From: Rickettsiales bacterium
GTDB taxonomy: Bacteria; Pseudomonadota; Alphaproteobacteria; Rs-D84
Assembly (NCBI GenBank): GCA_031273075.1
Contig: JAISSM010000019.1
Coordinates: 1 to 35,151 of the forward strand
DNA length: 35,151 nucleotides
Reading direction: 5' to 3'
The notes beneath the pieces are model-generated. The model did not search any database. It was given only the letters and a program-made list of their open reading frames with translations, and was not told where the DNA came from. The position numbers and the translations under genes were made by a program. Shown here one piece after another: positions 7,685 through 34,100 of the stretch; the stretch's first letter is position 1; every line of letters begins with the position of its first letter.

Positions 7685-7712
7685 TAGCAAATAGCAGGTA
7701 GCAATTAGCAAT
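7685..7712. repeat. TAGCANN heptanucleotide tandem array (4 units)
   Basis: tagcaaa tagcagg tagcaat tagcaat. A near-identical array lies at 15966-15993. Confidence 0.85.
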
Positions 7713-7716
7713 TGTT

Positions 7717-8774: not shown

Positions 8775-8789
8775 TCTTCATTCTTCATT
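8635..8789. mobile_element. MITE-like element with 27-nt heptad terminal inverted repeats around GC hairpins
   Basis: AATGAA(GAATGAA)x3 at 8635-8661 faces (TTCATTC)x3TTCATT at 8763-8789. They flank hairpins ggcgcc-aaa-ggcgcc and ctccccct-caa-ggagggggag. Confidence 0.6.
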
Positions 8790-8792
8790 ATT

Positions 8793-15936: not shown

Positions 15937-15962
15937 AAATCGCCCGCAAGGGCGATTTTTAT
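15937..15962 (+). terminator. rho-independent terminator after infB
   Basis: Hairpin ATCGCCC-GCAA-GGGCGAT followed by T5. Confidence 0.8.
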
Positions 15963-15965
15963 AAT

Positions 15966-15993
15966 TAGCAATTAGCAGATAGCAGGTAGCAAT
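15966..15993. repeat. TAGCANN heptanucleotide tandem array (4 units)
   Basis: tagcaat tagcaga tagcagg tagcaat. Same position relative to a terminator as the 7685-7712 array. Confidence 0.85.
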
Positions 15994-17107: not shown

Positions 17108-17136
17108 AGCATAATAAATGCAAAAAGAAATTGCAA
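17108..17136 (-). promoter_or_regulatory. candidate promoter of the ncRNA
   Basis: In minus sense: TTGCAA (17131-17136), 17-nt spacer, TATGCT (17108-17113), with an AT-rich UP-like tract upstream (17137-17190). Confidence 0.35.
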
Positions 17137-17245
17137 TAAATTAATTATCAATTATAAATTATTAATTATTAATCATTATAAATTCCCCGGGTTTTGGCGG
17201 ATTTTCCCCGCCCGAAAGGGCCTGAAAAATATTTTTCATGCAAAC

Positions 17246-19499: not shown

Positions 19500-19540
19500 T
19501 TTTTTACCTTTTGGTTAGTTTATCATTTTCCCAACTGGTT

Positions 19541-19659
19541 GTTCGCGCCAGAATTGCGCCAAATCGGAACAAAACCTCCCCACTCATGTACCCATCAGTA
19601 CACTTCGGGGTCGGTTTCGCACCACCTTGGCACATTCTAACGCGAACAAGTGCGTTAGA
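19541..19659 (-). repeat. intercistronic structured RNA element, type B (copy 1, rpsK|rpoA)
   Basis: Outer stem GTTCGCG/CGCGAAC. It shares about 100 nt with copy 4, including the core CACTCATGTA...GTACACTTCGGGG. Confidence 0.8.
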
Positions 19660-19665
19660 CGCGCA

Positions 19666-20046
19666 TCACACGCGGCGCACTTTTTTCGGACGGCATCCGT
19701 TGTGCGGAACGCGCGTCGTGTCCGTAATCGTCTGCACGATAAGGCCCGCGTTGCCGAGGCCCCGGACCGCGGACTCGCGCCCGCCGCCGATGCCGCGCAT
19801 AAGCACGTCTATCGTTTTCATTCCCAAATCGCACGCCTTTTTCGCCACGCTTTCCGCGACTATGGCCGCGGCGTAGGGGGTCGATTTTTTCGCGCCCTTG
19901 AAATTGTTCGCGCCCGCGGTGGCCCAGCACAACACCGCGCCGCCCTGATCCGTTATAGTGATGCGCGTGTTGTTCATCGTCGCCAAAACATGCGCGACGC
20001 CGTGCGACACTTTCTTTTGAACTTTTTTCTTATGCTTCAACGCCAT
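19666..20046 (-). CDS. rpsK: 30S ribosomal protein S11
   Basis: ...GVAHVLATMNNTRITITDQGGAVLCWATAG... is canonical S11. Confidence 0.97.
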   Translation of the reverse strand: MALKHKKKVQKKVSHGVAHVLATMNNTRITITDQGGAVLCWATAGANNFKGAKKSTPYAAAIVAESVAKKACDLGMKTIDVLMRGIGGGRESAVRGLGNAGLIVQTITDTTRVPHNGCRPKKVRRV

Positions 20047-20047
20047 A

Positions 20048-20425
20048 TTATTTTCCTTTAGTCGCCGATCCCGCGACCGCGACGCGTTTGCCCTTCCGGG
20101 TGCGCGCGTTCGTCTGAGTGCGCTGACCCCGAACCGGAAGACGGTTCCGATGGCGAAGCCCGCGGTACGTTTTAAGGTCCTGCAAGCGCTTTATGTTCAT
20201 CGTGACTTCGCGGCGAACGTCGCCCTCTATCTTGAAATTCTGTTCTATATAGCGCGATATGTCTATGATCTGCGCGTCCGTCAAATCTTTCGCGCGAAGC
20301 GAGCTTGGAAATTTAAGCGCGTTCACTATCTGTTTCGCCCGCGTCGGACCGATGCCGTATATGTACGTCAAGGCAACTTCTACCCTCTTCTCAACTGGAA
20401 TATTTACTCCTGCTATTCTCGCCAT
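20048..20425 (-). CDS. rpsM: 30S ribosomal protein S13
   Basis: [26 protein letters not shown]... is canonical S13. Confidence 0.97.
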
Positions 20426-20443
20426 ATACTTTCTTCCTTTAAT

Positions 20444-20489
20444 CTATCGGGTCGCGTGAAACTTTTGACGCGACGTCCTTGCTTGACCC
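20444..20489 (-). repeat. intercistronic structured RNA element, type A minimal form (copy 2, secY|rpsM)
   Basis: ctatcGGGTCGCGTgaaacttttgACGCGACgtccttgcttgaccc. Only the outer hairpin and the conserved flanks are present. Confidence 0.75.
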
Positions 20490-20541
20490 TTTTTTATTCT
20501 TTTTATTACGGTTTCCTATTTTATCCTAATATTCCGCAATG

Positions 20542-21858
20542 TCAAACGCGAAAGCGACTTTTCTTGCCCGCCTTTTTGATCACGCTCGAATATTGCTTTG
20601 CGAAGATATAAGACTGTATCTGATTGAACGTGTCAAGCACGACGCCCGCGACGATCAGAACGCTTGTCCCGCCGATCACAAGCGGCATTCCGAACCTCGT
20701 GTTAAGCACTATCGGCATGCAGCACACGAATATAAGGTACGCGACCCCGATCGTCGTCGTGCGCGAAACTATATCGTCCAGAAACATCCGCGTCTGTTCG
20801 CCCGGACGGACGCCGGGGATATAACCCCCCGCGTTTTTAAGGTTGTTCGCCGTTTCCTCGGAATTAAACACTATCGCCGTTTGGAAAAACGCAAAGAACG
20901 CGACCAGAAAAGAGAAAAGGATTATATACGACCACGTTCCGTACGTGAAGAACGCCATGACCTGCTGGTACCAAAGCGAATCGGACTCTATAAACTTCGT
21001 CAGAAACGCGGGAAGCATCATTATCGACGACGCGAACACCGGACCCATCACGCCCGACATATTCAATTTTATCGGAAGGTAAGACGATTGGTTGTTCTGC
21101 ATGCCCATCATCGAAGCCTGGCGCGGATAAAGTATCTGTATCCGGCGCTGAGACTGTTCCATGAACGCGATCAGCGCGATTATGCCGACGACAAACGCCG
21201 CGATCACGAACATCATGAACGGCGACACGCTTCCGACGCCGCCAAGCTGGGCCAGCTTTACGATCCCGCCGGGTATTTCGGCGACTATCCCCGCGAATAT
21301 CAACAGCGACGCGCCCTGACCGAAACCGCGCGCGGTGATTTGCTCCGCAAGCCACATTACGAACGACGTTCCGCCGACCAGCGCCACGACCGTCGATATT
21401 TCAAAGAACAGGCCCGGATTCACCACCGCCGGAACGCCGTTCACCGGCGGCATCGCCGACAATCCCTTCGCGACCGCCCATCCCTGGACTATACACAGCA
21501 CTATGGCGAGATAGCGCGTGTATTGGTTTATTCTGACCCGGCCCGATTCGCCTTCCTTGCGAAGCTCGCTCAGCGTTTTCGACGCCGTGGACATCAGTTG
21601 TATAACTATCGACGCGGATATGTACGGGAAAATGTTCAGCGCCAAAACGGACATTCTGGACAATGATCCGCCCGCGAACACGTCGAACATGCCCAGCATT
21701 CCGGTGCTGTCGTCGAACAGGCGAAGGACGGCCGACGCGTTCACGCCCGGAAGCGGAACGAACGAGCCGACGCGGTATATGACGAGCGCGAACAATGTAA
21801 AAAGCAGCCGCTTTTGCAGATCGCTTAAACCGCTTAAATATTCCTTGATTATCGTCAT
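20542..21858 (-). CDS. secY: preprotein translocase subunit SecY
   Basis: 438 aa from ATG 21856-21858, overlapping the rplO stop (ATGA). Ten-TM pattern; starts [40 protein letters not shown]. Confidence 0.97.
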   Translation of the reverse strand: MTIIKEYLSGLSDLQKRLLFTLFALVIYRVGSFVPLPGVNASAVLRLFDDSTGMLGMFDVFAGGSLSRMSVLALNIFPYISASIVIQLMSTASKTLSELRKEGESGRVRINQYTRYLAIVLCIVQGWAVAKGLSAMPPVNGVPAVVNPGLFFEISTVVALVGGTSFVMWLAEQITARGFGQGASLLIFAGIVAEIPGGIVKLAQLGGVGSVSPFMMFVIAAFVVGIIALIAFMEQSQRRIQILYPRQASMMGMQNNQSSYLPIKLNMSGVMGPVFASSIMMLPAFLTKFIESDSLWYQQVMAFFTYGTWSYIILFSFLVAFFAFFQTAIVFNSEETANNLKNAGGYIPGVRPGEQTRMFLDDIVSRTTTIGVAYLIFVCCMPIVLNTRFGMPLVIGGTSVLIVAGVVLDTFNQIQSYIFAKQYSSVIKKAGKKSRFRV

Positions 21859-22313
21859 TTGGATTCTATAGTTCCGCCCGCTTTTACGACCGCCGCCTCC
21901 GCCGCCTTGGACCATTTGGCCGCCACTATGCTCATCTTGGATGCGATCGCGCCTTTGGCCAGAACTTTCAATCCGTCAGATTCGCCTTTGATTATTTTCG
22001 CGGCTTTAAGGGTTTCAAGCGTGATTTCTTTCGACGCGTCTATCCTTTTCGCCTTTATGAATTTTTCCAAATCGCCCAGATTTATTTCGGCGTATTCCTT
22101 ATGAAACGGGCTTACAAAACCGAACTTCGGAAAGCGGCGCAAAATATTAAGCTGCCCCCCCTGGAACGTCGCGATCTTGCGCGCGCCGGCGCGCGCCTTG
22201 GCGCCCTTGTGCCCGCGACCAGCCGTCTTGCCTTTGCCGGACGCTATTCCGCGGCCCACTCTTTTCCTATAGTGAGTCGCCCCAGGCTTGCTTTTCAATT
22301 CGTTAAGTTTCAT
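21855..22313 (-). CDS. rplO: 50S ribosomal protein L15
   Basis: [37 protein letters not shown]... is canonical L15. Confidence 0.97.
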
Positions 22314-22867
22314 TCCACAACCTCTTCTTTCTTCGCGGCCATGCGCCCGCCCTGGTTCGAAACTATTTCCGCAACCGGCTTGCCGCGGCGGTTCGCCACT
22401 ATCTTAGGGCTGTTCATTCTTCCGAACGCAAGGAACGCGGCGCGCACCATGTTGTGCGGATTGTTGGACCCTTTGGATTTCGCGACGACGTCCTGAACGC
22501 CAAGGCAGTCGAACACGGCGCGAAGGGCGCCGCCCGCGATGATCCCCGTTCCTGGAACGGCCGCGCGCATGACCACTTGGCCCGCGCCGAACTTCGCGGA
22601 TATATCGTGATGCAGAGTTCTGCCCTCTTTAAGAGGGACCTGCACCATTTTTCTTTTCGCCTCTTTCGTCGCCTTTTGCACCGCGGATTGAACCTCGCGC
22701 GCGTGGCCTTTGCCGAACCCGACCTTGCCCGCCTTGTCGCCGACGACGACAAGCGCCGAGAACGACATCGTGCGGCCGCCTTTCACGGTTTTGGACACGC
22801 GGTTGATCGCGATCAATTTATCGACCAAATTGTCGGTTTGCAAATCTTTATTTTCAAATCGTGCCAT
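22310..22867 (-). CDS. rpsE: 30S ribosomal protein S5
   Basis: ...[42 protein letters not shown]... is canonical S5. Confidence 0.97.
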
Positions 22868-22869
22868 TT

Positions 22870-23256
22870 TTATTTTACCTTTTTTATATTATTCGAACAT
22901 TCCATAATATAGTATGTTTTTGCCGCAATTGCCGAAGCAAAAGCCGATGCCGAGGCGCTGAACATCGGGATCGTGGTCGATAAATCAACCATTTCCGCCG
23001 GAACAGACGACAACACCGTGCCGGACAACATAAGAGGCATGCCCGATATCGCCAAAATCCAATTTGCCGCCTCATTTTCCTTTGGAAGCCGCCGGCCCCG
23101 CTCCAAATTAAATGTAAGTTCTTTACACAGCCAACTCGTAGAACATTTTTCACATAACCAATCCGCAAAATTTTCGAGCTTAGTCGACAGGGTTGCGCCT
23201 TGACCCGGTTGCAACAAATTGCCATCCAAAAAATTCTTGCCAAGAGGGTTCGTCAT
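22870..23256 (-). CDS. orphan cistron between rplR and rpsE (128 aa, hydrophobic C-terminal half)
   Basis: ATG 23254-23256 lies 16 nt after the rplR TGA with an AGGA SD. Its TAA is 2 nt before the rpsE ATG. AT-rich. Putative TM segments: [23 protein letters not shown] and [17 protein letters not shown]. Confidence 0.6.
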
Positions 23257-23272
23257 ATTTTTTATTCCTGTA

Positions 23273-23623
23273 TCAAAACTTCACGCCGCCGGCGCGGATC
23301 GCATCCGCAAGGGCTTTGATGCGGCCGTGGTATTTGTATCCGCCGCGGTCGAAATACACTTCCTTCAACTTGGCCTTCTTCGCGCGTTCGGCAAACATCT
23401 TTCCGACTTCCTCTGCTCCGGCCGCGTTCCAACCCTTGCCTTTGAAGTCTTTTTCCTTGCTCGACGCGGCGCAGATCGTCCTGCCGTTCACATCGTCGAT
23501 CGCCTGTATCTCCATATGGCTGTTGGAACGGAACGCGCAGAGGCGCACCCGGCCGTAATTTTTTCTTTTAAGAGAGGCGCGGTTCGCAAATGTGCGCCGC
23601 TCGCCCGAAGTTAAGTGTTTCAT
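23273..23623 (-). CDS. rplR: 50S ribosomal protein L18
   Basis: ...RVRLCAFRSNSHMEIQAIDDVNGRTICAASS...DRGGYKYHGRIKALADAIRAGGVKF is canonical L18. Confidence 0.97.
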   Translation of the reverse strand: MKHLTSGERRTFANRASLKRKNYGRVRLCAFRSNSHMEIQAIDDVNGRTICAASSKEKDFKGKGWNAAGAEEVGKMFAERAKKAKLKEVYFDRGGYKYHGRIKALADAIRAGGVKF

Positions 23624-23639
23624 TTTTTATCCATTCGTT

Positions 23640-23837
23640 CTATTTTTCTTTCGCTATTTTCGCAATTTGGTCCTTGGAATACGACTTCGACTGCTTCCAC
23701 TCCTTGAATAATTTTAATATCTCTTTTTTACATTCAACGCCCTTGGATATGATCTGGCCTTTTTCCACATCCACCAAATCATAGGTTCTTCTCTCCACAA
23801 CTTTCAATGAATCGGTTTTCCTTATTACCTTTTCCAT
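23640..23837 (-). CDS. orphan cistron between rplF and rplR (65 aa, Lys-rich)
   Basis: ATG 23835-23837 lies 4 nt after the rplF TAG, and its stop is 16 nt before the rplR ATG. AT-rich. Starts MEKVIRKTDSLKVVERRTYDLVDVEKGQIISKGVECKKEILKLFKEWK... Confidence 0.55.
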   Translation of the reverse strand: MEKVIRKTDSLKVVERRTYDLVDVEKGQIISKGVECKKEILKLFKEWKQSKSYSKDQIAKIAKEK

Positions 23838-23841
23838 TTTA

Positions 23842-24390
23842 CTACTTCTTCTTGCCTTCTTTGCGGCGAATCGTTTCGTTTTTATAGAATATGCCCTTGC
23901 CCTTGTACGGTTCCGGCTTGCGGACTTTGCGGATCTTGTCAGCGAATATCCCGACCGCGTTCTTGTCCGTGCCCGAGATTTTGAATTCCGTCGCGGATGA
24001 AACCTCCACCGATATTCCATTTGGAATCGGCATAACGACGTCGTGCGAATAACCCGCGGTCAAAACCAGATCTTTTCCTTTGACGACCGCCTTGAATCCG
24101 ACGCCTTTCATTCCCATCTCTATAAAATATCCCATCGTGACTCCCGTGACCGCCTGTTTGATATTCCGCGCCATTGTGCCCCACATCGCGCGCGACGCCT
24201 TGTCATCCGGATTAAACGGCGAGACCAAAACCGATTTTTCATCAATGTCGACTTTGACAAGGTTCGAATTGGCGGTGTCGACGCGAACGGAAAGTTCGCC
24301 CTTCGGCCCGCGGACGACTATCGCGCCGCCCTCTTTCGCGACGGTTACGCCGTTCGGAATTTCTATCTTATTTTTGCCTGCTCTCGACAT
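23842..24390 (-). CDS. rplF: 50S ribosomal protein L6
   Basis: MSRAGKNKIEIPNGVTVAKEGGAIVVRGPKGELS... is canonical L6. Confidence 0.97.
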   Translation of the reverse strand: MSRAGKNKIEIPNGVTVAKEGGAIVVRGPKGELSVRVDTANSNLVKVDIDEKSVLVSPFNPDDKASRAMWGTMARNIKQAVTGVTMGYFIEMGMKGVGFKAVVKGKDLVLTAGYSHDVVMPIPNGISVEVSSATEFKISGTDKNAVGIFADKIRKVRKPEPYKGKGIFYKNETIRRKEGKKK

Positions 24391-24400
24391 GATCTTTTCC

Positions 24401-24799
24401 TTAAATTACGCGGCACAAAACTTCGCCGCCGACATTCTTCACGCGCGCGGCCGCATCCGTCATTACGCCCATCGGGGTCGACACTATCGCGACGCCAAGC
24501 CCGTTCATGACGCGCGGCATTTTGTCCACGCTGAAATACGCGCGGCGACCCGGCTTTGATACGACCGATATCTCCTGGATCGCGCCCGACCCGCCCGTGT
24601 ATTTAAGCGTCGCTTCCAGGTCGAATTTGTTCGCGCCCGCGGCAACCTTTTTGAAACCGGTTAAAAACCCCTCGTCCACAAGGACGGAAAGCACGGCTTC
24701 CTTAAGCGCCGAATACGGCATGGAAACGGTTTCCTTGCCGGCCTTCTGCCCGTTGCGAATTCTCGTAATCATGTCCCCGACGGGGTGAGTCAATGCCAT
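24401..24799 (-). CDS. rpsH: 30S ribosomal protein S8
   Basis: MALTHPVGDMITRIRNGQKAGKETV... is canonical S8. Confidence 0.97.
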   Translation of the reverse strand: MALTHPVGDMITRIRNGQKAGKETVSMPYSALKEAVLSVLVDEGFLTGFKKVAAGANKFDLEATLKYTGGSGAIQEISVVSKPGRRAYFSVDKMPRVMNGLGVAIVSTPMGVMTDAAARVKNVGGEVLCRVI

Positions 24800-24815
24800 T
24801 ATTATTTTTCCTTTG

Positions 24816-25118
24816 TTACCAACTTGATTTCCGGACGCCGGGAAGTTTTCCCTCGCTTGCCAATTGTCTCGTCTGCTGGCGGCAAAGGCCGAACTGACGG
24901 CTGTACGAGCGCGACCGGCCCGTGATCGCGCAGCGGTTGCGAAGACGCGTCTTGTTCGCGTTGCGCGGAAGTTTCGCCAGCTTTTTCATGGCGTCGATCC
25001 TTTCCTCAGGCGTCGCGTTAAGGGACATCTTCTCTTTCAAAAGATCGCGTTTGCGCGCGTATTTCGCGACCATCTTCACGCGCCTTTCCTGCTTCAAAAT
25101 CAATGCCTTCTTCGCCAT
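24816..25118 (-). CDS. rpsN: 30S ribosomal protein S14 (long form)
   Basis: [25 protein letters not shown]...LPGVRKSSW is canonical S14. Confidence 0.97.
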
Positions 25119-25133
25119 ATCCGTTTTTCCTTT

Positions 25134-25679
25134 TTATTTGAGCACAAGCGGCAATCCCATTTTGGAAAGCAGCGCCCGGCCCTCGTCGTCCGTTTTCGCA
25201 CTCGTCGCGATTATTATGTCCATGCCGCGGATCGATTCCAACTTTTCAACCGATATCTCCGGGAAGATCAGATGTTCTTTGATCCCGAACGCATAGTTTC
25301 CTCTTCCGTCGAATTTCGATTTGGACAGCCCTTGAAAATCCTTGATGCGCGGAAGCGCGATCGTGACCAGCTTGTCGAAAAAGTCGTACATTCTTTTGCC
25401 GCGAAGGGTCACCATGGTTCCGACCGCCTGGCCTTCGCGCAGTTTGAAATTGGCTATGGATTTTTTCGCGAACGTCGTCTTCGGCTTTTGCGCCGCGATA
25501 AGCGTCATATCGGCGACGGCCGCGTCCAATTTTTTCTTGTCCAAAGCCCCCTCGCCCACGCCCATGTTCAAAACTATTTTCAAAAGTTTCGGAACCTGCA
25601 TATCGTTCTTGTATCCGAACTCGGCCTTAAGTTCCGGAACGATTTTGCTTTTATAAACATCAAACAATCTTGCCTTCAT
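25134..25679 (-). CDS. rplE: 50S ribosomal protein L5
   Basis: [25 protein letters not shown]... from ATG 25677-25679 with an AAGGTG SD. The longer track start is unlikely. Confidence 0.95.
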
Positions 25680-25738
25680 CTTCTTCACCTTTTGGCCTTC
25701 CGTTTCAGCGGTCGGCGGGTTTCGCCCCATTCTATCAT

Positions 25739-26068
25739 CTATTTCTTCGATTGCAACTTCTTAGATTGCAGTTTTTCGCCGGATTTTTTCGTCACGCGGA
25801 TCTTTTTCCCACTCTCCATCACGTACCCGACGCGCGACGGCTTTTTCGTTTTCTCGTCTAAAATCGCGACGTTGGAGACGTGTATCTTGGATTCCACGTC
25901 GTCGATATGCCCGGGCTTTTCCTTGGTCGGCTTCACATGCCTTTTTACGCGCGCGACGCCTTCGACCACGACTTTGGATTCGGCCGGATAGGCGGCGATG
26001 ACTTTGCCCTTCGCGCCTTTGAATTTTCCGGATATAACGACGACCTCGTCGCCTTTCAGTATCTTCAT
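25739..26068 (-). CDS. rplX: 50S ribosomal protein L24
   Basis: [23 protein letters not shown]... contains the KOW motif. Confidence 0.97.
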
Positions 26069-26071
26069 TTT

Positions 26072-26338
26072 TTACTCCACATCCACTTTGGTGTCCTGTT
26101 CCACGCCGATTTTCGATTTCAGTATCCATGTCTTGGTTTTTGAAATCGGACGGTGTTCCTCTATGGTCACGACTTCGCCGACTTTGCCGGAATTGTCTTC
26201 GTCGTGCGCCTTGTACTTTTTATTGTGCTTCACGAATTTTCCATACAGGGGATGGCGGAACTTGCGTTCCACCTCCACAACGACGGTCTTGTCGTTTTTA
26301 TTGCTGACTATTGTTCCTTGCAGTACTCTTCTAGGCAT
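26072..26338 (-). CDS. rpsQ: 30S ribosomal protein S17
   Basis: [36 protein letters not shown]... is canonical S17. It sits after rplN, which is a non-canonical position. Confidence 0.96.
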
Positions 26339-26352
26339 CTTGTTTTCCTTTT

Positions 26353-26727
26353 TTATAATACTTCCGGCGCGAGGGAAATTATCTTCTGCACGTCGTATTT
26401 TTTTCTTGTTTCGCGCGCGACCGGTCCGAATATGCGGGTGCCGATGGGCTCGAAATTATTCTTATTTATCAGGACGACGGCGTTGTCGTCAAAGCGGATG
26501 ATGGATCCGTCCGCGCGCCGCGTCGGGAATTTCGTCCTTATTATAATGGCGCGCTGAACCGTTCCTTTCTGAACCTTGCCGCGCGGAATGGCGTCCTTTA
26601 TCGCGACGACGATTTTGTCGCCGACGGCCGCATAGCGGCGATGCGATCCGCCCAGCACTTTTATGCAAAGGCATTTTTTCGCGCCGCTGTTGTCCGCTAC
26701 GTTTAATATAGTTTCAGTTTGAATCAT
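26353..26727 (-). CDS. rplN: 50S ribosomal protein L14
   Basis: [28 protein letters not shown]... is canonical L14. Confidence 0.97.
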
Positions 26728-26746
26728 ATCTTTGTGTTTCCTTTAA

Positions 26747-26872
26747 CCTGTCGGGTCGCGTGAAATTCCCGCCACTTCGGGGCGGAGCCCGCCCACTCAT
26801 GTAACTATCCGTACACTTCGGGGCGGGTTCCACCCCAAATTGTCGGTTTTTGACGCGACGTTCTTGTTAGAC
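26747..26872 (-). repeat. intercistronic structured RNA element, type A full form (copy 3, rpmC|rplN)
   Basis: Outer stem GTCGCGT/ACGCGAC, a middle module, and the apical core CACTCATGTAACTATCCGTACACTTCGGGG. Confidence 0.8.
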
Positions 26873-26874
26873 TT

Positions 26875-27069
26875 TTATTTATTTGTTCCTTGCTTATTTA
26901 ACTTTGTCTTTATGCGGGCGACCTCGCGGCGATTTTTGCGGATCACGTGCGTCTTCGGCAATTGCCCCGCCGCATGTTGAAACCGAAGATTCATCCCGTC
27001 TTTTTTAAGATCGGCCAGTTTTGATTCCAACGCTTCCCTGTCCAAATTCACATCTTTCGCCTTTGCCAT
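26875..27069 (-). CDS. rpmC: 50S ribosomal protein L29
   Basis: ...LESKLADLKKDGMNLRFQHAAGQLPKTHVIRKNRREVARIKT is canonical L29. Confidence 0.95.
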   Translation of the reverse strand: MAKAKDVNLDREALESKLADLKKDGMNLRFQHAAGQLPKTHVIRKNRREVARIKTKLNKQGTNK

Positions 27070-27070
27070 T

Positions 27071-27265
27071 TTATTTCACCTCGTACTTTTTCAACTGCCT
27101 TTTTAACCGGCCATTTTGTTTCATCATCTTTTCAAATTTATCCTTTGCCGACGCCGTTTCTTCTTTTGCAAGAAAAACCTCTTTCATAATGTCCGTGTCC
27201 GATGCCAACTTCAAGATTTGATCCAAATGATACTTGATATTTTCAAACTCAAGCATCTTCGCCAT
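27071..27265 (-). CDS. orphan cistron between rplP and rpmC (64 aa, helical/charged)
   Basis: ATG 27263-27265 lies 2 nt after the rplP TAA, and its own TAA is 1 nt before the rpmC ATG. AT-rich. Starts MAKMLEFENIKYHLDQILKLASDTDIMKEVFLAKEE... Confidence 0.55.
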   Translation of the reverse strand: MAKMLEFENIKYHLDQILKLASDTDIMKEVFLAKEETASAKDKFEKMMKQNGRLKRQLKKYEVK

Positions 27266-27267
27266 TT

Positions 27268-27681
27268 TTAATTCGCCTTTCTTTCGACTATTTTCGTTTT
27301 GACCGGAAGCTTCGCGGACGCGAGCGTCAACGCCTCGATCGCGATTTCCGGCTTCACGCCGTCCATTTCGAATATTATGCGGCCCGGCTTTACGCGGCAC
27401 ACCCAGTATTCCACCGCGCCCTTTCCCTTTCCCATGCGGACGCCCAAGGGTTTTTTCGTCACCGGCACGTCCGGAAAAATGCGGATCCAAAGACGGCCAA
27501 GGCGGCGCATGCGGCGCGTGATGGCGCGGCGGGCGGCCTCTATCTGGCGGCTTGTCACGCGCTCCGGCGTCATGGCTTTAAGTCCGAACGACCCGAACGC
27601 AAGTTCCGATCCGCCTTTGGCGACGCCGTGAATGCGGCCCTTGTGCTGTTTCTTAAACTTTGTTTTCTTCGGTTGCAACAT
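27268..27681 (-). CDS. rplP: 50S ribosomal protein L16
   Basis: [24 protein letters not shown]... is canonical L16. Confidence 0.97.
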
Positions 27682-27699
27682 TTTCTTTTACCTTATCCG

Positions 27700-28407
27700 T
27701 CACGCGGGCCTTATTTGTCTTTCCGACGATGCGGCGAATTCCGTCGGGCGCGACAATTCGGCCGCCATTTTTTCCTTGTTCACGACGTCGCCGGTATAGA
27801 CCCAAACCTTGACGCCGATAACTCCGTACGTCGTTTTGGCCTGAATTGCCGCATAGTCGATGTCCGCGCGAAGCGTGTGAAGAGGAATCTGCCCTTCGCG
27901 GATCGATTCCGACCGCGCGATCTCCGCGCCGTTAAGACGGCCGCTGCACGTGATCTTGATTCCCTTAGCGCCGGATTTTTCCGCATTCTGCATCGCCTTT
28001 TTCATGGCGCGCTTAAACGACACGCGACCCTCTATCTGCTGGGCTATATTCTTTGCGACCAATTGCGCGTTCAAATCGGGCTTGCGAACTTCAAATATGT
28101 TCACGACAACCTGATCATTTTTGACCAGTCTTTTAACGGCGTTGCGAAGGGCCTCTATGTCCGCGCCGTTCTTTCCGATGATCATGCCCGGACGGGACGT
28201 GTGTATCGTCACGACAAGTTTTTTGGCAAAGCGCTCTATCACAACGCGGGCGAGGCCCGCCTTGGCCAGCTTTTTTTCGATAAAGTTACGAATCTTCACA
28301 TCTTCTATCAACAGGCCCGGATAGTCCTTTTTCGACGCGATCCAACGCGAATCCGGCGTCTTGTTTATGAATTGTCTTAATGAAACTGGTGATACCTTCT
28401 GCCCCAT
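27700..28407 (-). CDS. rpsC: 30S ribosomal protein S3
   Basis: [16 protein letters not shown]..., with a KH domain and a [12 protein letters not shown] motif. Confidence 0.97.
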
Positions 28408-28427
28408 ATTTTTTATCCTTCTTTACT

Positions 28428-28551
28428 TGCCGGTTCGCGTTATAATGCGCCAAATCGGCACGAAACCTCCCCGCTCATGTAACTATCCGTACACTTCGGG
28501 GTCGGTTTCGCACCACCTTGGCACATTCTAACGCGAAGTCCTTGCTTGTCC
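28428..28551 (-). repeat. intercistronic structured RNA element, type B (copy 4, rplV|rpsC)
   Basis: In minus sense it folds into a rod hairpin of about 110 nt (stems of 9, 8, 11, 5 and 5 bp) with several G.U pairs. Same apical core as copies 1, 3 and 6. Confidence 0.8.
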
Positions 28552-28555
28552 ATTT

Positions 28556-28990
28556 TTATTTCTTTTTTGTTTCTTTTTTCTTTTCCGTTTTTGCGACTTT
28601 CGTTTTCTCTTTCGGCGCGGGCGCACCCGATTCCAAAACGATCGTAAGATGCGAGAACGGTTTCAAAATCGGCTTTGCCTGACCGCGCGGCCCGGCGCGA
28701 TAACGCTTCATCGTGATCGCCTTACCGACCCAGATTTCCTTCACGAACAAAGAGTCCGCGTTCATCTTCTTGTTGTTCTCCGCGTTGGCGATCGCGGACA
28801 AAAGGGTTTTCAAAACTTCGCCCGCAACGCGCTTTTTGGAAAATTTCAGCGCGTCGACCGCCTTCGCCACCGGAAGGCCGCGGACCAAATCCGTCACCAG
28901 TTGCAGTTTATACATAGACGTGCGGATAAGCTTGTTGTACGCGCGCACCTGATTTTCCGCCAAATTGTATCTTGTCTTTTCTTTCGCCAT
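28556..28990 (-). CDS. rplV: 50S ribosomal protein L22 with a Lys-rich C-terminal tail
   Basis: ...AYNKLIRTSMYKLQLVTDLVRGLPVAKAVDALKFSKKRVA... is canonical L22. Confidence 0.96.
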   Translation of the reverse strand: MAKEKTRYNLAENQVRAYNKLIRTSMYKLQLVTDLVRGLPVAKAVDALKFSKKRVAGEVLKTLLSAIANAENNKKMNADSLFVKEIWVGKAITMKRYRAGPRGQAKPILKPFSHLTIVLESGAPAPKEKTKVAKTEKKKETKKK

Positions 28991-29271
28991 TATTTCTTTT
29001 CCACCGCTTTTTTGTTCGCCGCGTGGCCCTTGAACGTCCGCGTCGGCGCGAATTCGCCAAGCTTGTGCCCTATCATATCCTCCACGACCGCGACCGGAAT
29101 AAATTTGCGCCCGTTGTGAACGTCGAACGTAAGCCCCACCATCTGGGGAATAACGGTCGATCCGCGCGACCAGGTCTTGATCGGCTTTTTATCGTTCGCT
29201 TCCAAAGCCTTTGCGGACTTTTTCAACACGGATGGATGAACGTATGGACCTTTCCACACACTTCTTGTCAT
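28990..29271 (-). CDS. rpsS: 30S ribosomal protein S19
   Basis: [18 protein letters not shown]...[16 protein letters not shown] from ATG 29269-29271. Confidence 0.96.
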
Positions 29272-29292
29272 TTTATTTGTTCCTTTTTTACT

Positions 29293-29376
29293 CTGCCGGG
29301 TCGCGTGAAATTCCCGCCACTTCGGGGCGGGGTCCACCCCAAATTGTCGGTTTTTGACGCGACGTCCTTGCTTGCC
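29293..29376 (-). repeat. intercistronic structured RNA element, type A intermediate form (copy 5, rplB|rpsS)
   Basis: Outer stem plus the middle module (cccgcc-acttcgg-ggcggg; ggtccacccc), without the apical core. Confidence 0.75.
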
Positions 29377-29397
29377 TATTTTCTTTTATTTACCTTT

Positions 29398-30231
29398 TTA
29401 TTTCTTCTTGCTCAAGTGACGAGAGCGGATAATGAACTTCTGCGTCAGTTTGTTTTTCCGCGTGCGGAATCCTTTGGCCAAAACGCCGGTCCTGGATTGC
29501 GGATGATGCCCCTTGCCGCGGCCGTTTCCGCCGCCGTGCGGATGGTCGACCGGATTCATGGCGACGCCGCGCGTCGTCGGGCGAATGCCCTTCCACCTTG
29601 CGCGGCCGGCTTTGCCCAAATTGATATTGCGCTGATCCGGATTGGATACGACGCCGATCGTGGCCATGCAATCGGAATGAACTTTGCGAAGTTCGCCCGA
29701 ACCCATCCTTATCTGGGCGTAAACGCCGTCCTTGCCCATAAGCTGAACCCCGCAGCCCGCGCTTCGCGCGAATTGGGCACCCGCGCCGGGTTTCGTTTCC
29801 ACATTATGAATCGTCGTTCCGATCGGAATATTTTTAAGCGGCATCGCGTTGCCCGGCATGATGTCCGCCGTATCGCTTGCGACGACCGTATCCCCGACCT
29901 TCAATTTCTGCGGCGCCAGGATATACGACTTTTCGCCGTCTTTGTATTCCAAAAGCGCGATGAATCCCGTTCTGTTCGGATCATATTCAAGGCGCACGAC
30001 CTTCGCCGGAACGTCTTTTTTAGAGCGCTTGAAATCGATCAGGCGGTATTTTTTCTTGTGCCCGGCGCCCTGATGCGGAACGGTCAGGCGTCCGTAATTG
30101 TTGCGGCCGCCTTTCGATTTGATGCCTCTGGTCAACGATTTTTCCGGATCGCCCTTATGCAGTTCGGAATGGTCGACAAGAACCATGCCGCGCATTCCGG
30201 GGGTAACTGGTTTATAGGTTTTAAGAGCCAT
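29398..30231 (-). CDS. rplB: 50S ribosomal protein L2
   Basis: [17 protein letters not shown]...[24 protein letters not shown] from ATG 30229-30231. Confidence 0.97.
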
Positions 30232-30290
30232 TTCTTTACCTTTTCGATCCGTCTCTAACATCGCTTTGGATTATCAGACGAATTCCTTTT

Positions 30291-30650
30291 TTACTTTTTC
30301 GCGCTTTCGGCCAAAACGTCCACGCCGTGACCTTTAGGCAAAGTCACATACGCTTTTTTGACCGTCTTTTGCGCGCCTTTATTTTTTCCGCGGAAAGATT
30401 TCACCTTTCCTTTTATATTCGCTACGTTCACTTTTTTCGGCGAAACGCCGTAAATCGCCAAAATCGCGTTCTCTATGTCTTTCTTGGTCGCATTCGGCGC
30501 AACTTCAAAAACAAGACCGTCCGATTCGGCCAACTTAGCGGCCTTTTCGGAAATGATCGGCCGGCGCAAAACGTCATAGACCCCCGCCGTCACGACCGCC
30601 TTTTTTTCAACCTTTTTTCCCGTCGAAACTTTCGCTTTCTTTTCCGTCAT
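30291..30650 (-). CDS. rplW: 50S ribosomal protein L23
   Basis: ...YDVLRRPIISEKAAKLAESDGLVFEVAPNATKKDIENAILAIYGV... is canonical L23. Confidence 0.95.
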   Translation of the reverse strand: MTEKKAKVSTGKKVEKKAVVTAGVYDVLRRPIISEKAAKLAESDGLVFEVAPNATKKDIENAILAIYGVSPKKVNVANIKGKVKSFRGKNKGAQKTVKKAYVTLPKGHGVDVLAESAKK

Positions 30651-30967
30651 TGTTTTACCTTTGCGCTTTTCTTTTGTGCGATTTTCTTTACATGAACGAA
30701 AAACTGCGTCGTCACCGACGGCTTCCCTCTTTTGTTTTTGTTTGTTTCACTGGATTTGAAATTAAATTTTCCGACCCTATATCCTTCTTCTTTTAAGCTC
30801 ATATTTACAAGACTTTTGACTGCGCTTATGGGAAGATCATTCGCTTCAGATTGTCCTTCTATCGTCACCACCGCCATAAGCTCTTCTTTAGGCAACCCAC
30901 CCTCGGGAAAATTATTCATGATTGCCAGTTCAGTCTTTTTCGAAGGAAGCTTAATCGTATACGCCAT
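30647..30967 (-). CDS. orphan cistron between rplD and rplW (106 aa, basic C-terminal tail)
   Basis: ATG 30965-30967 lies 1 nt after the rplD TAA, and its stop overlaps the rplW ATG (ATGA). AT-rich. Starts MAYTIKLPSKKTELAIMNNFPEGG and ends KNKRGKPSVTTQFFVHVKKIAQKKSAKVKQ. Confidence 0.6.
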   Translation of the reverse strand: MAYTIKLPSKKTELAIMNNFPEGGLPKEELMAVVTIEGQSEANDLPISAVKSLVNMSLKEEGYRVGKFNFKSSETNKNKRGKPSVTTQFFVHVKKIAQKKSAKVKQ

Positions 30968-30968
30968 T

Positions 30969-31592
30969 TTATCCGCCCAACCTTTCTTCAAGCGCTTTCG
31001 CGCCGTCTTTTGTCAGAACCAAAGCCTTGTGCCTTAGAATATCGCGAACGTTCGCGCCGATCGCCGGCAAGACATCCACGTTCTTTATGTTCGCGATGGA
31101 TTTCTTAAAATTCGCGTCGATTTCGGCGCCGCCTATGAACAACGCCGAAGTCAGTTTCATTTTCGCCAACTTTTTCGCCACGTCGCCCGTCTTCGCCGCG
31201 GCGACTTTTTCCGAATCCAGAACGACAAGCGTCTTTGCGGCAGCATGGGACGACAGCGCCATTTTAAGCCCAAGCGTTCTGATTTTCTTCGGAAGGTCCA
31301 GCGCGTGCGAGCGCAAGACCGGCCCATGGATCACGCCGCCGCCGCGCATATGAACGTTGCGCTTTTCGCCCTGGCGCGCGTTTCCGGTTTTCTTTTGCTT
31401 GTAAACTTTGCGGCCGGATCCCGAAACGTCGGAAACGGATTTAACGGCATGCGTTCCCTGGCGCGCGTTGGCCAATTGCCAGTGAACAACCCGCTGTAGA
31501 ATATCCGCGCGCGCATCAACGCCGAAAACCGCGTCGGACAATTCCGCGCTTCCCGCGACCTTTCCGTCAAAATTTATCACATCCATTTTCAT
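30969..31592 (-). CDS. rplD: 50S ribosomal protein L4
   Basis: ...GSGRKVYKQKKTGNARQGEKRNVHMRGGGVIHGP... is canonical L4. Confidence 0.97.
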   Translation of the reverse strand: MKMDVINFDGKVAGSAELSDAVFGVDARADILQRVVHWQLANARQGTHAVKSVSDVSGSGRKVYKQKKTGNARQGEKRNVHMRGGGVIHGPVLRSHALDLPKKIRTLGLKMALSSHAAAKTLVVLDSEKVAAAKTGDVAKKLAKMKLTSALFIGGAEIDANFKKSIANIKNVDVLPAIGANVRDILRHKALVLTKDGAKALEERLGG

Positions 31593-32350
31593 TTTTTCTC
31601 TTCCGGATTTTCCGCCATAACTTCCGCGGCGTCTTCGGTCTTGCTTTCTTCTTTTATCTCTTCATCGACTTCGACCGCGGATGCGGATTTTGTCGGCATG
31701 GGCAAATCGCCCTGCTCTTTCTTTATCGCGTCCGTGACCATTACGAACGTTCCGTTCGCGCCGGGAACGGAGCCCTCCACAAAAATCAAATTCTCTTTCT
31801 CGTCGATTCCGAACACTTTAAGGTTTTGAACCGACACCAATTCGTTCCCCATCTGCCCCGCCATTTTGCGGCCTTTGAACACGCGGCCGGGCCATTCGCG
31901 GTTTCCGATGGAACCCAATCCGCGATGCGCCTTAAGAACCCCGTGCGACGCTTCCTTTCCGCCGAAATTATGGCGCTTCATTGCGCCTTGAAATCCTTTG
32001 CCCTTGGACGTCGATTGAACGTCGACAAGCTGTCCTGAAACAAAATGTCCCGCGGACATGGGTGTCCCGGCGGGAACGATGCAGTCTTCGGAAACGCGAA
32101 ATTCACACACCTTGCGGTAGAGTTTCACCCCGTCTTTTTTCGCGGCGGCTATCTGCGGCTTCGCCATATGCTTTTCCTTGGCCTCCGACATGCCCAGCAC
32201 GACCGCGCTGTATCCGTTTTTATCGACGCTTCTCGTTCCGACGACCGAACAGTCGCCGACCGAAAGCACGGTGACGCCCTTCGCGGCGCCATTGCCGTCG
32301 AACAATCGCGTCATTCCAACTTTTTTCGTTATCAGTCCCGAACGTCTCAT
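31589..32350 (-). CDS. rplC: 50S ribosomal protein L3 with an acidic C-terminal extension
   Basis: MRRSGLITKKVGMTRLFDGNG... from ATG 32348-32350 with a GAAAGGG SD. The track start at 32365 is a TTG. Confidence 0.95.
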   Translation of the reverse strand: MRRSGLITKKVGMTRLFDGNGAAKGVTVLSVGDCSVVGTRSVDKNGYSAVVLGMSEAKEKHMAKPQIAAAKKDGVKLYRKVCEFRVSEDCIVPAGTPMSAGHFVSGQLVDVQSTSKGKGFQGAMKRHNFGGKEASHGVLKAHRGLGSIGNREWPGRVFKGRKMAGQMGNELVSVQNLKVFGIDEKENLIFVEGSVPGANGTFVMVTDAIKKEQGDLPMPTKSASAVEVDEEIKEESKTEDAAEVMAENPEEKK

Positions 32351-32375
32351 TTTATGCCCTTTCAAGCCATGCGGC

Positions 32376-32690
32376 TTATAATTTTATCTTTACATCCACT
32401 CCGCTCGCCAGATCCAACTTCATCAGGGCATCTACTGTCTGAGGGGTTGGATTCACAATATCGATCACGCGCTTGTGATTGCGAATTTCAAATTGTTCGC
32501 GCGACTTTTTGTTCGCGTGCGGCGAACGGTTGACCGTGAACTTCTGTATCATGGTCGGCAAAGGAACGGGCCCGACAACCTTCGCGCCGGTGCGGTCCGC
32601 GGTCTTCTTGATCTCGTCGGCCGCCTCTATAAGCGTCCTGTGATCATAGGCGGTCAATTTAATCCTTATCCTCTGCGAATCCATAGCCAT
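32376..32690 (-). CDS. rpsJ: 30S ribosomal protein S10
   Basis: ...[41 protein letters not shown]... is canonical S10. Confidence 0.97.
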
Positions 32691-32700
32691 CTTCTTTTAA

Positions 32701-32828
32701 TCCGTCGGGTCGCACGGAATTCCCGCCATTATGGGTGGTTTCCGCCCACTCATGTAATTATCCATACACTTCGGGGCGAAAACCACCTCATACTGTCGGT
32801 TTTCTGTGCGACCGTTTTTGTTTGACCC
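32701..32828 (-). repeat. intercistronic structured RNA element, type A full form (copy 6, tuf|rpsJ)
   Basis: Outer stem GGTCGCAC/GTGCGACC, compensatory relative to copy 3. A 14-bp middle stem and the apical core CACTCATGTAATTATCCATACACTTCGGGG are present. Confidence 0.8.
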
Positions 32829-34030: not shown

Positions 34031-34100
34031 AACCTTCTCCTTTTTATTTGGTTGTTATAATATTCACTTTTTTCTGATTTCAAGAATCTTTAACCTTGCT

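Follow-up and report, generated by a model that had tools for sequence, protein, structure and literature searches.

Hairpin-forming repeats at ribosomal-protein gene junctions of an uncultured alphaproteobacterium: a probable family of transcribed palindromic repeats

The ribosomal-protein (r-protein) genes of an uncultured alphaproteobacterial lineage, on a contig labeled 'MAG: Rickettsiales bacterium', are interspersed with a hairpin-forming repeat of about 105 nt, or about 130 nt when its semi-conserved flanks are counted. The window, by which we mean the whole 35,151 nt stretch of DNA analyzed, contains six copies between tuf and rpoA, all on the minus strand, which is the mRNA sense: four full hairpins of 104-105 nt, one deletion derivative of 64 nt and one minimal hairpin of 24 nt. 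A preliminary description had placed these copies in six gaps from tuf to rpoA and none outside the ribosomal cluster. Both statements stand: when a covariance model of 20 family members is run over the whole window with filters off, it recovers exactly these six, and beyond them and their plus-strand echoes, which reach only 12-46 bits, there is no match at E<0.1. Recomputing the gaps returned the sizes first given, 116-166 nt, with one copy per gap, and all copies are, as described, co-oriented with transcription a short distance 5′ of a start codon. The only other long gap nearby, fusA-tuf (148 nt), has no copy and holds a promoter-like site instead.

Copy 1, in the tuf-rpsJ gap (32709-32812, minus strand; model match 32697-32828, 110.2 bits), is a full type-A hairpin of 104 nt; it folds at -60.4 kcal/mol (z -6.6), and 18 nt separate the end of its stem from the rpsJ ATG. 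Copy 2, between rplB and rpsS (29300-29363, minus strand; match 29288-29379, 76.2 bits), is a 64 nt type-A derivative without the apical module (fold z -3.2), its stem ending 28 nt before the rpsS ATG; compared by eye, it equals a copy-4-like element that has lost the stretch flanked by two direct repeats of 13 nt, CCGCCCCGAAGUG. Copy 3, between rplV and rpsC (28434-28537, minus strand; match 28422-28553, 124.4 bits), is a full type-B hairpin of 104 nt (fold z -9.4) and shares 91 % identity with copy 6 when the apical module is excluded. Copy 4, between rpmC and rplN (26755-26859, minus strand; match 26743-26875, 138.7 bits), is a full type-A hairpin of 105 nt and the best match in the window (E 5e-37; fold z -5.4). 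Copy 5, between secY and rpsM (20451-20474, minus strand; match 20439-20490, 35.9 bits), is the weakest (E 6e-8), a minimal form of 24 nt with the 7 bp basal stem GUCGCGU/ACGCGAC, a 10 nt loop and both conserved flanks, whose fold taken alone is without significance (z -1.4). Copy 6, between rpsK and rpoA (19542-19646, minus strand; match 19530-19662, 105.4 bits), is a full type-B hairpin of 105 nt (fold z -8.7) that lacks the family flanks and is inserted 5′ of the native rpoA leader UUGGGAAAAUGAUAAACUAACC, which relatives retain without any hairpin.

The distribution of flanks and outer stems differs from that first reported. The 5′ flank, (G)NCAAGCAAGGAC, was said to be missing from copy 1 and degenerate in copies 3 and 6; it is intact in copies 2, 3 (as GGACAAGCAAGGAC) and 5, degenerate in copies 1 and 4, and absent from copy 6. 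The outer stem GUCGCGU/ACGCGAC, attributed to copy 3, belongs to copies 2, 4 and 5, and GUCGCAC/GUGCGAC, attributed to copy 6, is that of copy 1; copy 3 reads UUCGCGU/ACGCGAA and copy 6 UUCGCG/CGCGAA. The motif CCGAYAGRUUAAAGGAA, proposed to follow type-A copies, is exact in copies 4 and 5 and in no other copy. In copy 1 the 3′ flank with the ribosome-binding site (32690-32708, minus strand) reads CCGACGGAUUAAAAGAAG and is followed by AUG; the equivalent flanks lie at 29270-29299, 28407-28433, 26727-26754 (copy 4, CCGACAGGUUAAAGGAA) and 20425-20450, all on the minus strand. Since no U-tract stands directly 3′ of the hairpin (every 3′ flank reads CC(N)RCAR...), an intrinsic terminator or attenuator is ruled out, and a terminator scan of the minus strand lists none of the copies.

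Rods of about 105 nt, with z scores of -5.4 to -9.4, are formed by the four full-length copies; full-length rods have about 45 bp and energies of -49 to -67 kcal/mol. The basal stem of each rod, (G/U)UCGCGU with ACGCGA(C/A), is conserved, as is a C-C mismatch, and the apical hairpin has a GAA/GA internal loop. The covariation of stems noticed among the window copies is real and becomes far stronger when 16 more copies, taken from metagenome contigs, join the alignment: of 36 consensus pairs, 19 show compensatory double changes, and 97.1 % of cells are paired as against 83.8 % in shuffles (0 of 500 reach the observed value), while slid registers pair at most 53 % of cells. We show that the structure is constrained on the mRNA-sense strand. 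G-U cells outnumber A-C cells by 66 to 5 (about 13:1), and 22 copies out of 23 fold more stably on the sense strand than on the antisense, the mean difference being 8.4 kcal/mol (p=3e-5), so that only one strand is constrained; the G-U pairs, like the conserved mismatches, point to selection acting on the strand that folds. In the basal stem, the C-C mismatch and the apical internal loop, sequence is kept beyond the needs of pairing, and for the first two this hints at a specific recognition factor.

The same asymmetries bear on a purely DNA-level site, a cruciform or protein-binding palindrome serving replication, recombination or nucleoid organization, for which the RNA would be irrelevant. 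The long palindrome with its conserved center would suit such a role, as would the GCGAAGC-type GAA mini-hairpins, unusually stable in DNA, that adjoin several copies. We consider it very improbable, however, because the G-U/A-C asymmetry and the strand stability gap show one strand to be constrained, the variable length of the apical loop speaks against a double-stranded dimer site, and the strict relation to start codons would be left unexplained.

Promoter-like sites lie 30-60 nt upstream of copies in several cases. A sigma-70-like promoter, TTGACA-16-TAAAAT (11/12 matches; 20518-20545, minus strand), overlaps the stop codon of secY some 30 nt 5′ of copy 5 and is also found ahead of the rpsM leader in all relatives examined. 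Another candidate, TGGACA-16-TAGAAT (10/12; 28552-28525, minus strand), is made up of the 5′ flank and the start of copy 3. It would fit an insertion that carries promoters, the -10-like TAGAAT/CAGAAT of type B joining a -35-like box with the 5′ flank to form internal promoters for the downstream cistron, much as Correia elements generate promoters (PMC2649163). Yet just one of the six copies scores, type-A copies are without such boxes, and the consensus scan over-predicts in A-rich sequence (25 sites here, about 12 expected); moreover, a transcript that started within the 5′ arm would be unable to fold into the covarying rod. This explanation is hardly credible.

At the gathering score no Rfam family matches the window (S10 leader, Alpha_RBS RF00140, L2-Alphaproteobacteria or any other); at E<=10 a single hit falls near a copy, Alpha_RBS at copy 5, whose 18.8 bits stay below the cutoff of 38, and the copies in related loci match nothing. 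BLAST against plasmids and phages likewise returned nothing. Together with the covarying fold, this agrees with the earlier view of a lineage-specific structured element outside the known leader families. The further proposal that the element is maintained specifically in r-protein mRNA has to be abandoned. A context-blind sequence pattern, which forces the apical module, found 19 further copies in metagenomes, and the genes behind them are mutS, parB, ybaB, efp, fusA, thrS, rnpA, mreB, rpmF, a nucleotidyltransferase gene, rplN and rpsM. A co-oriented start codon follows all six window copies and 18 of the 19 found by pattern; these 18 lie at most 70 nt upstream of it, and the distance in the family is nearly always 5-30 nt. 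Copies occupy transcribed spacers, either between cistrons or in a 5′ leader just behind the promoter. A copy is closest to those at other genes rather than to its counterpart at the same gene in another genome; the copies at efp and mutS are 100 % identical outside the pattern-forced module.

Close relatives, with 80-92 % RpoA identity, have the same junctions empty or occupied by truncated or palindromised versions. One with 86 % identity has no copy in 21 kb of the same cluster and a rpmC-rplN gap of 1 nt; one with 92 % has none at rplV-rpsC or rpsK-rpoA and elsewhere only short rearranged versions; another has a copy at rpoA-rplQ instead. Locus by locus, rpmC-rplN is a 1 nt gap in L035 and holds only a minimal hairpin in L037, the orthologous rpsK-rpoA sites are empty in L035, L037, L038 and L040, L022 shows a nested insertion and L037 palindromised halves. 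Such presence/absence variation, as is characteristic of MITEs, thus extends over L035, L037, L038, L040 and L041 (junctions empty or rearranged) and L042 (a new site). Within genomes, copies thus appear to come and go, to suffer internal deletions, to turn palindromic and to be homogenised, in which respect the family is closer to ERIC, Correia or RPE-type repeats than to a conserved leader. The same junctions in relatives also carry quite different hairpin repeats, built from heptamers, which suggests that any hairpin is tolerated there rather than one specific operator needed.

The idea first considered, that the classical operon heads have a conserved leader or operator, is not supported by the relatives with 86 % and 92 % identity, which are without the element at shared junctions. 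An autoregulatory r-protein operator likewise appears unlikely, because relatives have no copies at the same junctions and another has a new site. More broadly, the element could be a dedicated cis-regulatory RNA operator of a translation and housekeeping regulon, with an r-protein or other factor binding the apical GAA/GA loop or the basal stem. The downstream genes are enriched for such functions (six r-protein genes, rpoA, fusA, efp, thrS, rnpA, rpmF, mutS, parB, mreB), the position before the ribosome-binding site is fixed, and there is the conservation beyond pairing. Relatives of 80-92 % RpoA identity nonetheless lack the element at these genes, and junctions in relatives bear the unrelated heptamer-built hairpins; copies 2 and 5, deleted and minimal, do without the apical module; and in L042, where copies were found without forcing by the pattern, that module varies. 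We regard the operator as a decidedly improbable explanation.

Taken together, the presence of the repeat at many other genes and its coming and going between close relatives make it look like a new family of a known kind, the transcribed palindromic repeat. We favor, at a probability of about 55 %, an interspersed palindromic repeat family constrained on the sense strand, each copy a predicted RNase III or stability hairpin that punctuates operon transcripts with a Shine-Dalgarno sequence behind it. Copies inside operons must be transcribed, and the hairpins provide the at least ~20 bp of mostly continuous double-stranded RNA in a transcript by which RNase III hairpins are recognized, with no terminator among them. 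A double-stranded RNA of this length would be expected to act both as an RNase III substrate and as a barrier to exonucleases, and the polycistronic r-protein transcript would then be cut or insulated at the copy-bearing junctions; a role in RNase processing or stability is thus plausible. The purine-rich 3′ flank UUAAAGGA would supply the Shine-Dalgarno sequence of the downstream gene. Folding of the hairpin would also hold the upstream stop codon near the downstream start codon, which may be why insertions are tolerated at tightly coupled junctions.

The alternative that deserves most attention is a selfish mobile element for which the RNA fold is a by-product, either a single-stranded-DNA hairpin of the IS200/IS605 or REP/RAYT kind or a site-specific MITE. 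It would insert beside a purine-rich, SD-like RCAAGG on the lagging-strand template and survive only where its own SD-like 3′ flank keeps the downstream gene translated. In all copies the element begins (G/U)UCGCGUCA... and ends ...UCACGCGA(C/A), the whole being an inverted repeat with the terminal inverted repeats typical of MITEs. The polymorphism of presence, the identical copies at unrelated genes and the nested, deleted and palindromised variants all fit, as do the bare hairpin without family flanks at rpsK-rpoA, the RCARG motifs on both sides of the hairpin and a sequence in the tuf leader, AGCAAGGUUAAAG, that reads like both flanks joined with the hairpin missing. The r-protein sense strand is the G-rich one, as expected for the lagging-strand template of co-oriented genes. 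Against this, a non-exhaustive look through about 300 kb of related loci revealed no transposase, RAYT gene or parent insertion sequence. Both flanks share the RCARG consensus, but direct repeats within copies do not significantly exceed those between copies (p=0.09 for 5-mers, 0.35 for 6-mers), leaving copy-specific flank duplication without significance. The position of 18 of 19 pattern-found copies within 70 nt 5′ of a start is tighter than replication-strand bias alone gives, and the conserved mismatches and G-U pairs speak for selection on the folded strand. Parasitic repeats commonly accumulate at the 3′ ends of genes (PMC3049150), whereas this family stands almost only 5′ of them, which argues for function or for a very specific insertion target. 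A purely selfish element is possible, if on the unlikely side.

Occurrence at many non-r-protein genes, variable junctions and identical copies suggest that the transcribed repeat we favor behaves, as far as can be read from sequence, as an ERIC- or Correia-like interspersed palindrome with a sense-strand constraint, unlike a conserved leader. For function, the favored analogy is with phage T7, in which related hairpins with internal loops (R0.3, R1.1 and others) lie between cistrons just 5′ of the ribosome-binding site as RNase III sites. Cleavage is demonstrated in T7 and here only predicted, and the T7 sites are shorter and are not interspersed repeats of a cellular genome. Proteobacteria have other hairpin-forming repeats in the 100-150 nt range. 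The RPEs are found in Rickettsiales, the order under which the source MAG is labeled; they are AT-rich and frequently lie within genes, in frame. REPINs, hairpins about 100 nt long that move as single-stranded DNA, combine two REP units of 20-40 nt in inverted orientation, sit chiefly at the 3′ ends of genes and are accompanied by a RAYT gene, which encodes a Y1 transposase. AT-richness and in-frame location, or REP pairs, 3′ ends and RAYT, could not be shown here, and no GTAG-type REP motif is evident in the arms by inspection. A structure on the sense strand would also be compatible with an intermediate of single-stranded DNA on the lagging-strand template.

The ERIC/IRU elements of enterobacteria are imperfect palindromes, roughly 127 bp long and built around a conserved inverted repeat at the center, found in transcribed intergenic regions with deletion and insertion variants, traits that the present family shares. 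ERICs, however, occur in both orientations and at 3′ ends, and a blastn search with copy 4 found no match in 5,426 complete E. coli genomes and hence no similarity to ERIC/IRU or REP/BIME. Effects of ERIC/IRU on mRNA decay vary with orientation (summarised in PMC3049150). The Correia elements of Neisseria (CREE/NEMIS) are likewise interspersed palindromes, of ~70-157 bp, with length classes arising by internal deletion; they lie mostly 5′ of genes, differ in presence between close strains and are often transcribed, their hairpins being cleaved by RNase III (PMC2649163). They have no sequence similarity to the present family and a different phylum-level host; the present family, for its part, lacks the TA target duplication, is stricter in orientation (always sense to the downstream gene) and has a semi-conserved 3′ flank with a Shine-Dalgarno sequence. 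The TAACTGA heptamers of Beggiatoaceae are abundant a few nt from start codons, including those of r-protein operons, with a suspected post-transcriptional role (PMC4679880). The clade studied here also has heptamer-built hairpins at such sites, but TAACTGA is a short direct repeat without a long covarying hairpin.

These heptamer-armed hairpins bring up a further, rather unlikely possibility, that hairpins of unrelated sequence serve as systematic punctuation of cistrons and 5′ leaders, and that the apical module of this family is read by a conserved factor. The present family and several heptamer-armed hairpins may then be kinds of punctuation in this clade, marking points of RNase processing or insulation in the r-protein supercluster, a parallel to the tRNAs that punctuate mitochondrial transcripts. 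The module CCCC-GAA-GUGUAY...RUACAU-GA-GGG is found as well at the tip of other hairpins, from Fibrobacter, a clostridial MAG and contigs of peat or soil, and may be a small RNA module bound by a widely conserved factor. A kink-turn of the L7Ae type, in which a C-stem and a 3 nt bulge precede tandem sheared G-A and A-G pairs, was considered for the apical loop and rejected: in the invariant consensus columns, read by eye, the strand runs CCCC-GAA and then GU, not GA, and the covarying apical stem would be disrupted if the loop took the kink-turn register.

If the hairpins are processed, they would show how a reduced, uncultured alphaproteobacterium splits and rebalances expression of its single largest operon, and that mobile palindromes bringing their own ribosome-binding site are tolerated or exploited in coupled r-protein junctions. 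The near-exclusive location 5′ of genes in sense orientation is unusual among bacterial interspersed repeats and calls for explanation. The repeats also have practical consequences, as they break short-read assemblies (a Logan contig stops inside copy 1) and cause start codons to be mis-called (rpsM and rplQ of L042 are extended through the element), while the covariance model offers a ready marker of the lineage.

From tuf to rpoA the genes are closely packed or overlap, except at six spacers of 116-166 nt. Each of these spacers is occupied by a single copy of the same repeat family, as the preliminary description had proposed. Copy 1 lies at tuf|rpsJ, copy 2 at rplB|rpsS, copy 3 at rplV|rpsC, copy 4 at rpmC|rplN, copy 5 at secY|rpsM and copy 6 at rpsK|rpoA. 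A covariance model based on 20 copies, 4 of them from the window and 16 from metagenome contigs, was run over the whole window with filters off. Exactly six matches were found, all on the minus strand, scoring 35.9-138.7 bits (E 6e-8 to 5e-37); their reverse-strand echoes reach only 12-46 bits, and the window holds no further match at E<0.1. Marginal model matches at 30236-30298 and 7175-7251 are not elements. The remaining 22 kb of the window (pheST, rplT, mltA, lptD, lptFG, nusA, infB) contain no copy by the model, in agreement with the earlier statement that no copy lies outside the ribosomal cluster in the window. The preliminary description had suggested such a model search. It had also located the six copies correctly, with their common orientation and covariation; its assignment of the 5′ flank and outer stems to individual copies was mislabelled.

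Read in the mRNA sense, the element begins with an A-rich stretch, followed by a 5′ flank, (G)GNCAAGCAAGGAC, and the first strand of the basal stem, (G/U)UCGCGU. This strand is followed by a C-C mismatch, present in 20/20 aligned copies, and a long helix with a few A-G mismatches leads from there to an apical module consisting of CCCC, GAA, GUGUAY, a variable 4-10 nt loop, RUACAU, GA, G, a bulged N and GGG. Past the module come the return strand, the basal stem strand ACGCGA(C/A), a 3′ flank of the form CC(N)RCAR(G)-UUAAAGGA with the SD inside it, and the start codon. The 5′ flank is best preserved in type A (copies 1, 2, 4 and 5) and often missing in type B (copies 3 and 6, sharing 91 % identity). 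Full copies 1, 3, 4 and 6 are rods of 104-105 nt, with energies of -60 to -72 kcal/mol and z of -5.4 to -9.4. Copy 2 (64 nt) corresponds to a copy-4-like element from which the stretch bounded by two direct repeats of 13 nt, CCGCCCCGAAGUG, is missing; copy 5 is reduced to a 10 nt loop on a 7 bp basal stem, with both flanks retained; and copy 6 is a bare hairpin ahead of the native rpoA leader, which is kept hairpin-free in relatives.

The fold is supported by an alignment that was not itself fitted to structure. RNAalifold, applied to the MAFFT alignment of the 20 copies, gives 36 pairs, 19 of them with compensatory double changes. Paired cells amount to 97.1 % compared with 83.8 % in column shuffles, none of 500 shuffles attaining the observed value, and sliding the registers by 1-3 columns leaves just 33-53 % of cells paired. 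The alignment contains 66 G-U or U-G cells (46 when the pair dictated by the search pattern is left out) against 5 A-C cells, and folding energies favour the sense strand over its complement in 22 of 23 copies (mean difference 8.4 kcal/mol; Wilcoxon p=3e-5). Thus the constraint is on the mRNA-sense strand, acting on RNA or, formally, on single-stranded DNA of that polarity. The evidence for a genuine, structured repeat family in the mRNA sense is strong.

Copies in other genomes were collected with one exact pattern scan of metagenome contigs for the apical module, a search that is blind to genomic context and forces the module itself. It returned 28 loci (loci fetched by this pattern or by relatedness carry handles L001-L043, with coordinates local to each), and 18 of them contain 19 copies that the covariance model assigns to the family at 65-143 bits. 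The contigs named Ga0123353, Ga0123357 and Ga0268262 are presumably from termite-gut metagenomes. All but one of these copies (18/19) lie directly upstream of a co-oriented start codon, with 5-69 nt, mostly 22-28 nt, between stem end and start codon. The genes that follow are thrS, parB (twice), ybaB and the gene after it, efp, rnpA, mutS (in three species), mreB, rpmF, fusA, rpsM, rplN, a nucleotidyltransferase gene and two genes cut by contig ends. The family is thus not specific to r-protein mRNA as had first been claimed; it is a 5′-leader or intercistronic element of housekeeping genes generally. The exception is a copy in L022 that is antisense to both neighbours and carries a nested hairpin insertion. 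Sigma-70-like promoters stand 30-60 nt upstream of several copies. At one parB locus (L011:1943-2066), two truncated tandem duplicates of ~70 nt, each containing the 5′ flank plus the element's initial portion, directly precede the full copy.

Whether the element is a conserved leader can be judged from the same cluster in relatives, retrieved via their RpoA proteins. L037 (RpoA identity 92 %) has palindromised short versions at rplB|rpsS and secY|rpsM, in which one arm pairs with a copied complement of itself, a minimal hairpin at rpmC|rplN, and no copy at rplV|rpsC or rpsK|rpoA. L038 (88 %) has a divergent hairpin at secY|rpsM. L035/L036 (86 %) have no copy in 21 kb, their rpmC|rplN gap being 1 nt, and L041 (85 %), L040 (80 %) and L043 (74 %) have no copies either. 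In L042 (85 %), complete copies occupy secY|rpsM and rpoA|rplQ, the latter a junction without a copy in the window. A copy is usually closest in sequence to one at a different gene, not to its same-gene counterpart in another genome; the copies at efp in L008 and at mutS in L021 show 100 % identity when the forced module is disregarded. The empty or rearranged junctions, the bare copy 6 and the identical copies at unrelated genes together show that copies are gained, lost, rearranged and homogenised within a genome. Judged by these comparisons, the element behaves like an interspersed repeat and not like a conserved leader, and the earlier idea of an operator is not upheld, orthologous junctions being empty or rearranged in relatives.

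No transposase was seen at the loci examined in a non-exhaustive look, and copy-specific duplication of the flanks, as a test for target-site duplication, was not significant (p=0.09 and 0.35). Just past a TTGACT-16-TATAAT promoter, the tuf leader (window 34085-34100, minus) reads AGCAAGGUUAAAGAUU, much as the 5′ and 3′ flanks of the element would if joined without the hairpin; chance or an unoccupied target site may account for this. The Logan assembly of the same organism (L001:1-45) breaks inside copy 1, and in L042 gene callers run rpsM and rplQ through the element (5880-6326, 7951-8550).

Known families do not account for the element. Rfam, at the gathering score and at E<=10, gives nothing relevant in the window, in the related loci or in the loci of other phyla, which bears out the earlier remark that no described leader family was recognised. 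BLAST of copies 3 and 4 found no match in 72,556 plasmids, 50,697 phage records and 5,426 E. coli genomes, and the apical-module pattern is absent from viral contigs. A terminator was dropped because no U-tract follows the hairpin; kink-turn, sarcin-ricin/loop E, hammerhead and twister motifs, as well as attC, boxA and SRP-like readings of the conserved loops, were dropped by inspection, their defining nucleotides being missing. Promoter function was also set aside; copy 3 alone scores. The element is best filed as a new family among the known transcribed palindromic interspersed repeats (Correia, ERIC, RPE), with an unusually strict placement 5′ of genes in sense orientation.

Since the copies lie inside operons and lack a terminator, they must be transcribed. 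Double-stranded RNA of ~45 bp with few interruptions is a standard RNase III substrate and an obstacle to exonucleases. In the same setting RNase III cuts Correia elements (PMC2649163), and ERIC elements change mRNA decay (PMC3049150); these precedents, together with a transcribed duplex of this length, favour a role in transcript punctuation. From this analogy we infer a function in processing: cleavage of the hairpin, or its effect as a barrier that stabilises the RNA, would uncouple the cistrons on either side, and the downstream gene would take its ribosome-binding site from the 3′ flank. The folded hairpin would also hold the upstream stop and downstream start near each other, which could explain why hairpin-forming insertions are tolerated in translationally coupled junctions. 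One point speaks against a purely parasitic repeat. Parasitic repeats normally gather at the 3′ ends of genes (PMC3049150), unlike the present family, which is found almost only 5′ of genes; such placement implies either a benefit at these positions or a highly specific insertion target.

Tolerance of hairpin-forming insertions is consistent with quite different hairpins at the same r-protein junctions in relatives. Their arms are tandem heptamers that vary from genome to genome, for example (GGACTAG)n, (GTTTGAG)n, (GTGCGAG)n and (GACTAAT)n, and they occupy intercistronic gaps in L042 (6700-6850, 2410-2480, 3450-3590), L041 (1175-1305, 5000-5115, 6640-6760) and L040 (5870-5950). Thus the common feature of these junctions is the presence of some hairpin, not a particular sequence. 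The window itself has an (AATGAAG)n/(CTTCATT)n hairpin at 8635-8792, directly after lptD and directly before the next start codon. An AATGAAG heptamer array also lies inside the signal-peptide coding region of lptD (10776-10817).

The apical module has a wider distribution than the family. Scanning genome contigs with the pattern gave no family member and just two unrelated elements with the module. In Fibrobacter MAGs it tops a conserved structure of ~129 nt (z -6.5) downstream of argF, between the convergent 3′ ends of argF and its neighbour (L002:1134-1262, L004:981-1108, L016:6785-6913, L028:13557-13685); this element has no Rfam match and just the apical module in common with the family. 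The module also caps a repeated element in a Faecousia MAG, a near-perfect rod of 112 nt in a Ga0182024 contig and a hairpin in a soil contig. Its presence across phyla may reflect homology, convergence or chance, given that hairpin constraints lower the information of the pattern and that the module varies in the L042 copies, where it was not forced by the search and drifts with compensatory changes. Two family loci hold stand-alone modules that lack the outer rod: one (L030:647-705), located after rpsK, has an A-run on one side and a U-run on the other, as a bidirectional terminator would, and in the other (L014:8049-8107) the closing stem is now GGGUGU/ACACCC with the GAA...GA loop kept.

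The gene layout of the window has features of its own. The minus strand reads fusA, tuf, rpsJ, rplC, rplD, a 106 aa ORF, rplW, rplB, rpsS, rplV, rpsC, rplP, a 64 aa ORF, rpmC, rplN, rpsQ, rplX, rplE, rpsN, rpsH, rplF, a 65 aa ORF, rplR, rpsE, rplO, secY, rpsM, rpsK, rpoA, rplQ and secG, and no tRNA or tmRNA was found in the window. The three small ORFs (30647-30967, 27071-27265 and 23640-23837, all minus) match no Pfam family; small ORFs occur at corresponding cluster positions in L001, L035, L040, L042 and L043, which carry additional ones. The gene order is unusual in that rpsQ follows rplN (rpmC-rplN-rpsQ-rplX; window 26072-26727 and 21855-22867), and the cluster is without rpmD, adk, infA, rpmJ and rpsD. 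The rplN-rpsQ order is common to L029, L035 and L037; L043 has the usual order and an L30 gene. Farther along, pheT (798-3152, minus) is seemingly two ORFs, 1623-3152 and 798-1583, with ~40 nt between them, a split for which a frameshift, an assembly error or a stop codon could be responsible. An intergenic stretch at 7700-7900 (minus) without Rfam match contains five small GC-rich hairpins in series and then a terminator-like hairpin, and a TAGCAAT-like heptamer repeat is present at three intergenic sites (7675-7713, 15956-15994 and 17136-17174).
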